From the NCBI GenBank assembly GCA_030148865.1, contig JASBSR010000006.1, positions 66,111-130,110 on the forward strand: 64,000 nucleotides of DNA, read 5' to 3'. Below are positions 14,901 through 19,115 of this stretch, piece after piece. This stretch comes from Gammaproteobacteria bacterium. GTDB taxonomy: Bacteria; Pseudomonadota; Gammaproteobacteria; SZUA-229. A model generated the notes under the pieces. That model did not search any database, was not told the origin of the DNA, and saw only the letters and a list, made by a program, of their open reading frames with translations. The position numbers and the translations under genes are program-made. Position 1 is the first letter of the stretch; every line of letters begins with the position of its first letter.

Positions 14901-15014
14901 GTCTTCGTTATGAACGCTGTGGTTTTAATACCATTGTTTGTGTAAAGCTTAAAAAATCCTGAGCACGCAGTATATATGAGCTGTGCAGCGCCTGCCCATG
15001 CTTATCTGGCACGC

Positions 15015-15803
15015 CTAACTGAACTTCGGGTAATAGCCACTTTCGGGCAGACCATAGTGTTCAGGATATTCGACCTTCACCAGATACAGGCCATCGGCCG
15101 CCGCCGTCGGACCCGCCCGGGTGCGATCCTTGTTTGCCAGCAGCTCGGCCAGCCAGCCGACTGGCTGTTCGCCCCGACCTACCATCAGCAGGCTGCCGAC
15201 AATATTGCGCACCATATGATGTAAAAATGCATTGGCGCGGATATCGATATAAATATAATCTGCTTCACGGCTGAGTTTGATCGCATGCATAAAACGATGC
15301 GCGTGTGGTGCCTGACAGGCTGCCGAACGAAACGCAGAAAAATCATTCTCGCCAAGCAATGCCTGTGCTGATGTCTGCATGGCATCGAGATCGAGACGGT
15401 CATAAATCCAGCTCACGCGTTTTGCCAGCAAGGCGGCACGCGACGGGCGATTTAAAATCACATAGCGATAACTGCGCCGGGTCGCGCTAAAGCGCGCGCT
15501 GAATTCAGCATCGACTGCACGTGCCCAGTGCACACACACATCCCCGGGCAAAAGCGCATTCGCGCCCATCACCCAGGCTTTGAGTTTGCGCTGGGTATTG
15601 AGATCGAAATGCACCACCTGGCCTGTGGCATGCACACCAGTATCTGTGCGCCCGGCGCAGATCACCTGCACCGCGTGGTCGGCGATTTGCGACAACACCG
15701 GTTCGATGACTGCCTGCACGGTGCGGGTACCATGCGCCTGCATTTGCCAGCCATTAAAACGGCTGCCGTCGTATTCAACTCCGAGTGCAATGCGTTGTGT
15801 CAT
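15015..15803 (-). CDS. truA: tRNA pseudouridine(38-40) synthase
   Basis: ALGVEYDGS, AGRTDTGVHA, FLHHMVRNIVG. Start set at ATG 15803 because the longer ORF runs into a repeat. Confidence 0.96.
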   Translation of the reverse strand: MTQRIALGVEYDGSRFNGWQMQAHGTRTVQAVIEPVLSQIADHAVQVICAGRTDTGVHATGQVVHFDLNTQRKLKAWVMGANALLPGDVCVHWARAVDAEFSARFSATRRSYRYVILNRPSRAALLAKRVSWIYDRLDLDAMQTSAQALLGENDFSAFRSAACQAPHAHRFMHAIKLSREADYIYIDIRANAFLHHMVRNIVGSLLMVGRGEQPVGWLAELLANKDRTRAGPTAAADGLYLVKVEYPEHYGLPESGYYPKFS

Positions 15804-15853
15804 GTGATTCTTAATCTGTGGTCGTTTATGAAATAAGCCAGCACAAACAGCAC

Positions 15854-15926
15854 TGTCATCCTGAGTAACAGCGAATGATCTCATGCCTCGGTGGTACAAG
15901 ATCCTTCGCTATCGCTCAGGATAAGC
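15854..15926. repeat. REP-like inverted doublet (GTCATCCTGAG...GATCT type)
   Basis: TGTCATCCTGAGTAACAGCGAATGATCT (15854-15881) faces AGATCCTTCGCTATCGCTCAGGATAAGC (15899-15926); a related single copy lies at 46751-46780. Confidence 0.75.
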
Positions 15927-15945
15927 AACCCATAGTCTGACCCAC

Positions 15946-15985
15946 AAATAAAAACGGCACCAGCGATGCTGATGCCGTTTTTTAT
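15946..15985. terminator. Bidirectional-type intrinsic terminator downstream of fimV
   Basis: AAATAAAAACGGCACCAGC-GAT-GCTGATGCCGTTTTTTAT: GC-rich stem with an A tract on one side and a T tract on the other. Confidence 0.8.
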
Positions 15986-16002
15986 CTATATGAAACCGCT
16001 TA

Positions 16003-16286
16003 GCTGTAGTAGTCACCATCTGACCGTACAGATCGGATATCGGGTTCTGTTACCGGCTGATACTGGGGATCAACCAGTAAAAAATGCCGTAAACCACAGC
16101 GAGCGAAGGATGGTATACCGCGGTGACCCTGGATGTGTCTTCACCAAAAGCGTTCATCACCACGACAGGCTGGGGCGGTGTCATCCTGCCTCACACAAAA
16201 GGCCCGGCAACCTGCAGCAGGGTTTTTATAACCGTTATAATGTCGGTGTATATCATGATCTCGGATCAGGTGTGAACTACTACAGC
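16003..16286 (-). ncRNA. Candidate structured non-coding RNA (or MITE-like element), 284 nt, immediately after the fimV stop codon
   Basis: Ends pair (GCTGTAGTAGT / ACTACTACAGC, extending about 35 bp with bulges); several nested internal helices with G-U pairs on the minus strand; followed by a terminator. Confidence 0.5.
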
Positions 16287-19115
16287 CTAGCTATCGATGT
16301 CTGCGAGTATAGCTTCGGCTTCGGCCTTTTGTTCAGCATTGCCTTCAGCGACCACTTCTTCGAGTATGCTACGCGTACCTTCGTGGTCACCCATGTCGAG
16401 ATAAGCGCGTGCCAGATCCAGCTTGGTGCTGATTTCATCGACATCGCTGATATCAGAAAGATCGATTTCAGCATCGTCATCATCGCCAACCACAGAAACA
16501 GCACCAGCAGTCGCTTCAAGATCGTCACCATCGAGTTCAGCACTGACATCGATATCGAATTCCATATCATCATCTTCATCTTCGCTCGCATCATCACTCA
16601 CGTTATCACTGCCTTCAGTCTCGGCCTCAGCTTCTGCGCTTAAATCCAGATCGAAGTCCAGATCACTGTCGCCAGTACCGCTGTCCTCAGGCGCTGTAGC
16701 ATCGCTGGTAATGTCCAGCTCGGAGGCTTCGATATCCAGTGAAAACTCGTCATCGTCCTCAGTAGCCGGCACCGCGGCATCAGTTTCGCTAAGATCGAAT
16801 TCGAGTTCGTTTTCCGAGCTAACTTCGCTGTCAGTTTCAAGATCCAGCAGCGCGGTATCGTCTGAGGAGGTATCCGACAAATCAAGCACATTGTCATCAT
16901 CGAAACTAAAATCCAGATCAGCACTGGCATCTTCATCACCCAGGTCAATATCCATGGTCGGTTCAGCAGAGGGCACCAGATCATCCAGCGCCATATCCGC
17001 GACCGCACTCTCACCCTTGAACAGCTCATGATCGGGTATCAGTTCCTTGCCCATAACCACCAGTTTTTGCCAGCGCGTGCCGGTACCTTTGGTACGCGTA
17101 TGCATTTCACCAGCAAGTTCGGTGAAACCAGAGGTGTTCTTGCCCGCAAAATAAGTCTCCGCCAGTTTCATGCGGTAGGCGTCATTCTCGGGGTTTTCCT
17201 TAATCGCGCCCTGCAATAATTCTTCGGCCTGCTGATAAATCCCGTAGGCCAGATACACATCTGCCTCAGCCACGATGTCATCACGGGCTTCTTCTTCGGG
17301 CTCTGCTGCCTGAGTCACCACGGTATCTTCTGACGACGGCAAAATCATGGTGGTATCAGAGTCAAATTCTTCTGCCTCGGCTTCAGCCATTGATGCCTCG
17401 GCATCATCGTCGCCGACATCCTGATTGACCGCGTTATCGTCGAGCATGTCAGCAACACTGGCGAGTTCTTCATCAGTAAAACCGGAACCTGCTGCGTCTG
17501 TTGCACCGGACTGGCTGGTGCGGCGACGTTTCACAATCAGGTAGACCAGCGCCATCACCAGTAACAGCGCACCGCCAGCAACTGCCAGCACCAGCGGACT
17601 GTTGAGTATTTTAGCTACCAGGCCCTGCGGCTGATTTGGCTGCTCGCGCATACTATCGTCGATCCCGGGCTGGGGCTCAGCAGGTGTTTCAGCCATCGCT
17701 TCAGTAGCCGGCATTTGCTGGGGCTGGTTCACTGCATTGTGTTCATCGACAAAAACATTTTGCTCAGCACTCGCTCCCGGCTGGGCCTCTTCGGCAGGCA
17801 TCGTTTGCTGCTCAGCAGTTGCATTGATCTCACTCTCTGGCGCGATTTCCGCCTCTGCCTCGGATGGTGTCTGCGTTTCAGCAGAGCCAGTGGTCGCATC
17901 AGGATCAGTTGTGGCATTGTCTGACATGCCTGCCAGGGTCTGGTCTTCGATGCTGAGCAGGCGTTTCATCTTGCTCACCTGCTGCTCCAGGGTACTAACC
18001 TCACTCTGCAAAGATTCTTTTTCCAGGCGCTCCGATTCCAGACGCTCTTCGACCAGCGCCAGTTGTGCGCGTAGTGCGTCAGCCGACATGCTATCGAGGT
18101 TTTCAGCAGACCCCGTGCCGGCACCTTTGCCCGCACTCACGATCGACAAACGTGCAGCGCTGCTGGCGCTATCAGCCGTAGCGGTTTTGCCAGGCTTGGT
18201 ATTCGGGGTGGCGCTCGCGGGCTTACCGCTGCCTGTGACCTGCTGGTATTCACGCCACAAGGCATTTTGCTGGCGCACCATGGCAACAGCATCGTTTTGA
18301 GCAACACGGGCAATCTGGTCGCGCTCCGGCACCCTTAATATGTAGCCACGCTTGAGGCCATTGACATTACCGTCAATGAAAGACTCCGGATTCGTCCGCA
18401 ACAGTGCCAGCATCATTTGTTCGATAGAGACAGATTGATCAGGTCGTAGCGAGTTTGCGAGACTCCAGGCGGTATCACCCTGTTTGATTCGGTATTGACC
18501 CGGTTGCTGGGGCGCACTATTGCTCGGCGCTGCCATCGGTGTTGTCGTACTCGCAGCACGCGTTGTCGCAGGAGCTGTGCTGCTCGGTGTGTTGCTGCTG
18601 GTCGACATCGCTATGCCGGGGGGCGCTGGGGGGCGTGAACTGCTGGTATTCGAATTTACTGGTGCGGTTTCGGTTGCCGGGCGCGAGCCTGAAGCAGCAG
18701 GACGGGCGGCGCTTTGTTCATTAATATATACCGGTGGATCCAGCAAAATGGTGTATTCGCGCAAAAGGTGGCCTTTGGGCCAGTCGACTTCAATCAGGAA
18801 ATTCAGGAAGGGTTCGCGGATTGGCTTGCTGGTGGTAATGGTCAGATAGGGTACGTCATTTTTGAGTACATGGCCGAATTTGAGACTCTGTAATAAAAAC
18901 GGACGATCTAGCCCGGCGCGGCTGAATTCTTCGCGTGAAGCGAGTTTTACGATCAGGCTTTCAGCGTCTTCCGGCGCAGTAGACAGTAGTTTGATTTCGG
19001 CATCCAGGTCCTGATTCAGCGCTGATTTGACTTCTATGTCACCCAGCCCGAGAGTGTAGGCGTCCAGCGGCAACAAAGTCGCCGCCAACGCCAGGGCAAT
19101 TATCAATGTACGCAC
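16287..19115 (-). CDS. fimV: FimV/HubP family polar landmark protein
   Basis: LGLGDIEVKSALNQ N-terminus, LysM (YRIKQGDTAWSLA), coiled coil, TM segment, acidic region, AEADVYLAYG and TKLDLARAYLDMGD C-terminal domain; between asd and truA. Confidence 0.95.
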   Translation of the reverse strand: MRTLIIALALAATLLPLDAYTLGLGDIEVKSALNQDLDAEIKLLSTAPEDAESLIVKLASREEFSRAGLDRPFLLQSLKFGHVLKNDVPYLTITTSKPIREPFLNFLIEVDWPKGHLLREYTILLDPPVYINEQSAARPAASGSRPATETAPVNSNTSSSRPPAPPGIAMSTSSNTPSSTAPATTRAASTTTPMAAPSNSAPQQPGQYRIKQGDTAWSLANSLRPDQSVSIEQMMLALLRTNPESFIDGNVNGLKRGYILRVPERDQIARVAQNDAVAMVRQQNALWREYQQVTGSGKPASATPNTKPGKTATADSASSAARLSIVSAGKGAGTGSAENLDSMSADALRAQLALVEERLESERLEKESLQSEVSTLEQQVSKMKRLLSIEDQTLAGMSDNATTDPDATTGSAETQTPSEAEAEIAPESEINATAEQQTMPAEEAQPGASAEQNVFVDEHNAVNQPQQMPATEAMAETPAEPQPGIDDSMREQPNQPQGLVAKILNSPLVLAVAGGALLLVMALVYLIVKRRRTSQSGATDAAGSGFTDEELASVADMLDDNAVNQDVGDDDAEASMAEAEAEEFDSDTTMILPSSEDTVVTQAAEPEEEARDDIVAEADVYLAYGIYQQAEELLQGAIKENPENDAYRMKLAETYFAGKNTSGFTELAGEMHTRTKGTGTRWQKLVVMGKELIPDHELFKGESAVADMALDDLVPSAEPTMDIDLGDEDASADLDFSFDDDNVLDLSDTSSDDTALLDLETDSEVSSENELEFDLSETDAAVPATEDDDEFSLDIEASELDITSDATAPEDSGTGDSDLDFDLDLSAEAEAETEGSDNVSDDASEDEDDDMEFDIDVSAELDGDDLEATAGAVSVVGDDDDAEIDLSDISDVDEISTKLDLARAYLDMGDHEGTRSILEEVVAEGNAEQKAEAEAILADIDS

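Follow-up and report, generated by a model that had tools for sequence, protein, structure and literature searches.

The passages of PMC10969869 that deal with prokaryotic MITEs define them as elements of about 50–500 bp with terminal inverted repeats, flanking direct repeats and no transposase gene, which occur in many intergenic copies; their transcripts are predicted to form stable stem-loops, and the typical MITE is AT-rich. Two families treated in these passages are of interest at the level of RNA. In mRNAs, RNase III cuts Correia elements, the first-described of which measured 204 bp, at the inverted repeats, and ERIC elements at 3′ ends alter transcript levels (PMC10969869). For ERIC/IRU sequences at the 3′ ends of Yersinia genes, this account describes a palindromic repeat between the stop codon and the transcript end that can alter mRNA decay (PMC10969869).

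The element described here, which directly follows fimV in a gammaproteobacterial draft genome, most resembles type II MITEs (those that share only their terminal inverted repeats with a parent insertion sequence, IS) in its size, repeats, duplications and intergenic copies. It departs from typical MITEs in having 50% G+C, long (~38 bp) imperfect inverted repeats and a nested small hairpin repeat present in varying copy number, and in that no parent IS was found in the genomes searched. Correia elements (CREE/nemis) of Neisseria duplicate TA, are about 100–155 bp long and have 26-bp repeats. They are co-transcribed MITEs whose paired repeats form a long double-stranded RNA stem, a likeness that is predicted for the fimV copy, and they are the best model for any possible RNA-level behaviour of that copy. 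The fimV element, in contrast, duplicates 7 bp rather than TA and measures 280 bp, and the Rfam and collection searches gave no sign of a sequence link between the two. ERIC/IRU sequences differ from it in sequence and host, both unrelated, and the effect on mRNA is one demonstrated for ERIC. Insertion sequences of the IS481, IS3 and IS21 families have TGT...ACA termini and short target duplications, as does the fimV element; IS3-family duplications are usually 3–5 bp, as against 7 bp here, and the inverted repeats of the IS481- and IS3-type elements in the same genome are unrelated to those of the fimV element beyond ~13 bases.

Position and anatomy of the element behind fimV

The window (the whole stretch of DNA analysed, 64,000 nucleotides) carries fimV on the minus strand, with asd upstream of the fimV/truA neighbourhood and trpF downstream. 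Read on that strand, the fimV stop codon TAG is followed by the stretch 16003–16286, then by ~20 nt and an intrinsic terminator; truA (PseudoU_synth_1, 5.3e-42), also on the minus strand, lies downstream of the element with its ATG at 15801–15803. The initial annotation had described this stretch as a candidate 284-nt structured RNA placed between fimV and a strong terminator. Its sequence reads as described, and both neighbours were identified correctly: the upstream gene matches FimV_N (1.5e-39) and TPR repeats, and a hairpin of −22.6 kcal/mol with a U-tract follows at 15946–15982. The proposed boundaries held only in part. An element is present, but it had been drawn 2 nt too long at each end: every match among the genome copies ends at query positions 3 and 282 of 284, and since all other copies align to that span only, the boundaries are 16005–16284. 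The outer GC/GC of the 284-nt stretch is part of a target-site duplication. The features of the locus are as follows.

16287..19115, minus strand: fimV coding sequence, a 942-aa ORF (Pfam FimV_N, 1.5e-39, plus TPR repeats)
16287–16289, minus strand: fimV stop codon TAG, contained in the left target-site duplicate
16285..16291, minus strand: left 7-bp target-site duplicate, GCTAGGC, read from the sequence; it provides the current fimV stop
16005..16284, minus strand: the MITE proper, 280 bp, TGTAGTAGT...ACTACTACA; all other genome copies align to this span only
16247..16284, minus strand: left terminal inverted repeat, ~38 nt, imperfect, TGTAGTAGTTCACACCTGATCCGAGATCATGATAT... (global alignment with the reverse-complemented right end)
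16103..16188, minus strand: variable central module with a hairpin unit of the GCGAAG...ATCCTTCGC type (alignment of copies; the likeness in the fimV copy was seen by eye only)
16005..16044, minus strand: right terminal inverted repeat, ~40 nt, imperfect, with the reverse complement TGTAGTAGTCACCATCTGACCGTACAGATCGGATAT... (end alignment and end recurrence)
15998..16004, minus strand: right 7-bp target-site duplicate, GCTAAGC, the very heptamer found at the unoccupied site of G003, a genome of the same genus
15946–15982, minus strand: intrinsic terminator of fimV, a hairpin of −22.6 kcal/mol plus a T-tract (terminator scan)

The two ends of the element align with each other over ~38–40 nt with a few indels, and both begin with TGTAGTAG; the alignment of copies shows that these terminal inverted repeats are common to the other genome copies. 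The flanking heptamers, GCTAGGC and GCTAAGC, agree at six of seven positions, with one mismatch. Between the ends, the copies align as a left module of ~100 nt, a variable centre and a right module of ~100 nt, and other copies carry from none to three of the central hairpin units, which accounts for lengths ranging from 177 to 414 bp. At 280 bp, the fimV copy holds a single ORF, of 44 aa, and no transposase gene. Its G+C content of 50.4% is close to that of the window (52.4%), so the element is not AT-rich, a trait that is typical of MITEs without defining them.

Two further observations concern the surroundings of the terminator. A separate hairpin repeat of ~95 nt lies at 15841–15935 (minus strand), in the spacer that separates the fimV terminator from the truA start, and reads ATCCTGAG..GCGAAGGATC...GATCATTCGC..CTCAGGAT. 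It has ~8 further blastn pieces elsewhere in the genome, with blastn matches inside other MITE copies, and occurs in the congeners G004 and G003; the orthologous spacer of G003 is without it. The Rfam match to mir-143 on 15849–15930 (36.8 bits, gathering 60) is sub-threshold and spurious for a bacterium. On the plus strand, a 225-aa ORF (15966–16643) runs antisense to the terminator, the MITE and the 3′ end of fimV and is most likely spurious.

Genome copies and the empty site

The draft genome that carries the window (G000; 2.68 Mb in 44 contigs, 93% complete) contains the element in 16 places by similarity search, and the 17 pieces returned by blastn correspond to 14 loci. Beyond the fimV copy, 13 loci thus hold pieces of the element, four of them complete and three with perfect 7-bp duplications. 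A scan with the two terminal 30-mers, allowing up to 8 substitutions, located 7 left-type and 12 right-type ends. The five copies with both ends measure 280, 286, 414, 401 and 177 bp, eight loci are truncated or single-ended (three of them at contig ends), and C33:17039–17139 consists of the central module only, without ends. The perfect duplications are ATTCAGG on both sides of C24:59332–59617, CCTTAAG on both sides of the 177-bp copy at C20:50841–51017, and AATAAAG on both sides of C20:67914–68327; the length of the duplication is constant at 7 bp, while its sequence differs from copy to copy. All 14 loci are intergenic (between large ORFs), several of them 2–20 nt from a stop codon. Target heptamers here and in a related family treated below are A/T-rich and often contain TAA or TAG, a preference that may explain landings on stop codons.

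The closest other copy, C24:27528, is truncated to its left 206 bp and is 96% identical to the fimV copy over these 206 nt. Because the two share a 14-bp deletion at the left end, they are recent siblings, and the 96% identity documents recent transposon activity in the lineage. Among sequencing runs, the stretch occurs in one DNA run, probably the source, and in no RNA run. The assembly contigs of this DNA run end within the element, as expected of a repeat, and none of them joins across an empty site, with the proviso that such contigs cannot reveal rare alleles. As an aside, the copy at C24:59332–59617 stops just 18 nt short of the start codon (ATG) of an ADH-like gene (ADH_N) downstream, and its right duplication together with the next bases reads ATTCAGGAG, a possible ribosome-binding site; this insertion may affect the 5′ UTR of the alcohol-dehydrogenase-like gene.

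Genomes of the same genus preserve the site as it appears without the element. In G003, the 3′ end of fimV aligns up to the stop codon and reads ...GGCTAAGC... (in a longer reading, ...AACGGCTAAGCTGTTTCC...), with no element and with the same terminator next. The empty site is exactly GCTAAGC, spanning the TAA stop. G001 is likewise unoccupied, its fimV stop being followed directly by the spacer and terminator; among the other congeners, G004 matched on the truA side only and G002 gave no match at the locus. The terminator itself is conserved in congeners, with a 35-nt match of 97% identity directly after fimV in G003, and is older than the insertion. From the end of the fimV match, it lies 16 bp away in G003 and 302 bp away here, and this pre-existing terminator is now 287 bp further from the fimV stop. 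The FimV protein is unchanged by the insertion.

Multiple copies, inverted repeats, 7-bp duplications, intergenic positions, the empty site in congeners and the existence of a related family together make it very probable that the element after fimV is a plain MITE. The initial annotation had listed a MITE with TGTAGT...ACTACA ends as its third alternative and had also named many copies with target-site duplications as the finding that would reduce its RNA to a plain MITE; the copies at 14 loci, their duplications and the empty site bear this alternative out. The element adds a new family to a familiar class of bacterial repeats and is not a new structured RNA. We propose that a transposase supplied in trans would bind both terminal inverted repeats, which are imperfect and ~38 bp long (TGTAGTAGT...), and that the element inserted into the heptamer GCTAAGC overlapping the fimV stop codon, as suggested by the presence of that heptamer at the empty site of G003. 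Staggered cuts 7 bp apart, once filled in, would have duplicated the heptamer; in the right duplicate GCTAAGC is retained, and in the left one it has become GCTAGGC, whose TAG ends fimV. Lying between the stop codon and the terminator, the element is predicted to be transcribed within the fimV 3′ UTR, where the long double-stranded stem may serve as an RNase III substrate, as in Correia elements. RNase III sensitivity, if present, would be a by-product of the insertion and not the reason for the sequence.

RNA, peptide and RAYT-based explanations

The initial annotation favoured a novel structured RNA selected on the minus strand; such an RNA would be a 3′-UTR-derived sRNA or a regulatory fimV 3′ UTR, possibly released by RNase III. 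The pairing that it described is there. In the minimum-free-energy structure of the minus strand, the two ends pair such that the outer stem closes all 284 nt, and the 12-bp hairpin at 16050–16080 is present. The 284 nt fold at −99.9 kcal/mol, compared with a mean of −82.9 (sd 4.6) for 200 dinucleotide shuffles, none of which did as well (z −3.72); the pairing is thus genuine and non-random. A position between the stop codon and an intact terminator, from which co-transcription is predicted to be probable, also speaks for a functional RNA, as do the cleavage of Correia MITEs by RNase III and the shifts in transcript levels caused by 3′-end ERIC elements in the account of PMC10969869. The case for selection on one strand fails, however, on several counts. 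It had been argued that the non-canonical pairs favour the minus strand, but the plus strand folds better (−105.4 kcal/mol, z −4.30), each strand's own best fold contains 11 G–U pairs, and the five full-length copies show no consistent orientation preference, two folding better left to right and three right to left; mirroring the structure of each strand onto the other costs 11 to 17.5 kcal/mol. Because both strands fold equally well and with equal G–U counts, there is no RNA-strand signature. Such a result is what a DNA palindrome gives, and it does not speak for one-strand selection of an RNA. What looks like a long closing stem is nothing but the pair of inverted repeats in RNA form, and the inner arms are the nested small hairpin repeat plus subterminal sequence.

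Comparison of the copies points the same way. For the five full copies, RNAalifold returned a covariation term of +3.53, that is, a penalty, and only two of 60 pairs are compensatory, so that covariation is absent among these copies. One of the two is position 6 of the inverted repeats, U–A having changed to C–G in the C17 subfamily, a change that is expected because both ends copy one transposase-binding site; the 12-bp hairpin at 16050–16080 is out of register in the five-copy consensus. A permissive cmscan of 15000–17500 placed no Rfam family on the element, and the only overlaps were noise (STnc310 at 17.9 bits, gathering 40, E 4.4; GlsR4 at E 9.5). Congeners without the element at the locus also indicate that fimV does not need it, and a functional structured RNA is, on balance, a highly improbable explanation. 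The annotation's other suggestion, a folded type I toxin-like mRNA, which would encode a small peptide, could draw on the 44-aa ORF at 16050–16184 (minus strand) inside the element, but this ORF has no Pfam match, its frame is kept in only two of the nine copies that carry the ATG (the others stop at 8 to 39 codons or are frameshifted), and it sits in a transposable repeat with target-site duplications; we give this explanation almost no weight.

Mobilisation of a REPIN/REP-type element by a RAYT (a Y1 transposase), as opposed to a DDE enzyme, was considered in view of the four Y1_Tnp (RAYT-like) genes in the genome, one of which (C5:94736–95581) has a fragment of the element's right end 84 bp away, and of the GTAG present in the element ends, a motif known from REP heads. 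By definition, however, a REP flanks its RAYT gene in inverted orientation and has no target duplication. The RAYT genes of C5 and C26 are flanked by inverted REPs of their own (GGGTCAGGTCTTT...), which are unrelated to the element ends, and apart from the C5 fragment and a separate copy ~1 kb away on C17, the flanks of the four loci show no similarity to the element. The variable 7-bp duplications flanking the element also argue against this route, since Y1 single-strand transposition (IS200/IS605, REPINs) is not known to make 7-bp duplications. A RAYT-mobilised origin is scarcely credible. The genome does contain a REP–RAYT system that is unrelated to the MITE, comprising C5:94736–95581 and C26:81–926 with inverted, partly tandem REPs (GGGTCAGGTCTTT.. 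/ ..AAAGACCTGACCC); the two further Y1_Tnp genes are at C17:57213–57902 and C24:40522–41235.

Transposase search and the related MITE family

For the plain MITE, the TGT...ACA ends and the 7-bp duplication, read against the known traits of these families, suggest an rve-type DDE transposase (from relatives of IS481, IS21 or IS3). No autonomous element with matching ends was found in the element's own 93%-complete draft genome, nor did about a hundred draft genomes yield an autonomous partner. The four rve-domain matches of the own genome comprise a gene of IS3 type, two of IS481 type (C2:4066–5046 and C24:59907–61088) and a fragment. One IS481-type gene has inverted repeats TGTGTGATTCATAG..., ends that differ from those of the MITE. 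An IS481-type IS at C24:59884–61150 (L028:1040–2306), ~270 bp from another MITE copy, encodes a transposase of 393 aa whose domains are HTH, LZ_Tnp_IS481 and rve; the 33-nt inverted repeats of this IS start with GGGGTACG, and its ends are unlike those of the MITE. The last 1259 bases of C16 (L026:1271–2529) hold an IS3-family element with orfA (HTH_Tnp_1) and orfB (rve) and with ends TGTAGTGGCTCAG... (TGTAGTGGCT(C/A)AGT...); it terminates at the contig end, which leaves its duplication unreadable. When set against the related-family end TGTAGTAGTTCAG, the IS3-type end TGTAGTGGCTCAG agrees at 11 of the 13 outermost bases and shows no likeness further in, its inverted repeat sharing only the first ~13 nt with MITE-type ends.

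The whole 280-bp element gave no blastn match in any of 40 relatives, four of which belong to the same genus. Its ends have a wider distribution in the bacterial family: a 21-nt end pattern with at most 2 mismatches occurs in 27 of 97 genomes (G000 included), with 22 matches in G083, 18 in G082, 4 each in G084 and G041, and 3 in G105, and the reversed pattern, used as a control, gave 0 or 1 per genome. In genus g16, nine genomes have one match each to a near-identical string beginning with AGTAA (identical in eight), which may be a conserved single-copy sequence and not an element end. G083 and G082 yielded 20 left/right pairs, which delimit elements of 285–820 bp. Over the first 27 nt these elements share 85% identity with the fimV element, and their interiors are unrelated to it. 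The flanking heptamers of these 20 pairs agree at 7/7 positions in 11 cases, 6/7 in five, 5/7 in one, 4/7 in two and 0/7 in one. Right-type ends of this related family number 35–41 per genome in three species (control 0), and at 20 further loci in G083, 15 had pairs, all of ≤460 bp. Copies at contig ends are also MITE-like. The related MITE family is abundant in G083, G082 and G084, which belong to another genus of the same bacterial family (examples are L061:3292–3622 and L077:3430–3734), and its interior contains inverted copies of a repeat of the CTCGCAGAGGCGCAGAGAACGCAGAG type.

A transposase gene was not seen here either. Across 60 loci around end matches in relatives (20 + 20 + 20), every left/right pair was ≤820 bp; the 26 ORFs beside unpaired ends carried no transposase domain in a Pfam scan, and two of these ORFs that lacked any Pfam match were mutually unrelated and had no meaningful NCBIfam match. 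Eight rve-domain matches in G083, G082, G084 and G041 had no matching ends nearby. In wider sequence collections, the exact end pattern was found at 4 genome-contig and 17 metagenome-contig loci, all matching over the 21-mer alone, which is about chance level by a rough estimate, and a distant-mode search of the plasmid collection for the element end pattern gave no match.

These results leave room for a more far-reaching, though unlikely, proposal in two parts. The MITE superfamily, with TGTAGTAGTTCA... ends, a strict 7-bp duplication and up to ~40 ends per genome in several genera, would be an orphan moved by an unlinked, highly diverged or unrecognised transposase; separately, the copy in the fimV 3′ UTR would have been co-opted, in this species only, as an RNase III-sensitive stem tuning fimV, whose product acts in type IV pilus assembly. 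For the plain MITE that we favour, what is left as novel is the missing autonomous partner of a MITE superfamily widespread in a single bacterial family. The locus also calls for caution in annotation, in that a MITE inserted between a stop codon and a terminator mimics a long, well-folded 3′-UTR RNA, and only the copy count, the target-site duplications and the empty site tell the two apart. For fimV itself, the insertion re-made the stop codon from its own target duplication, and RNase III processing of the fimV copy, should it occur, could modulate the expression of a pilus-assembly gene.
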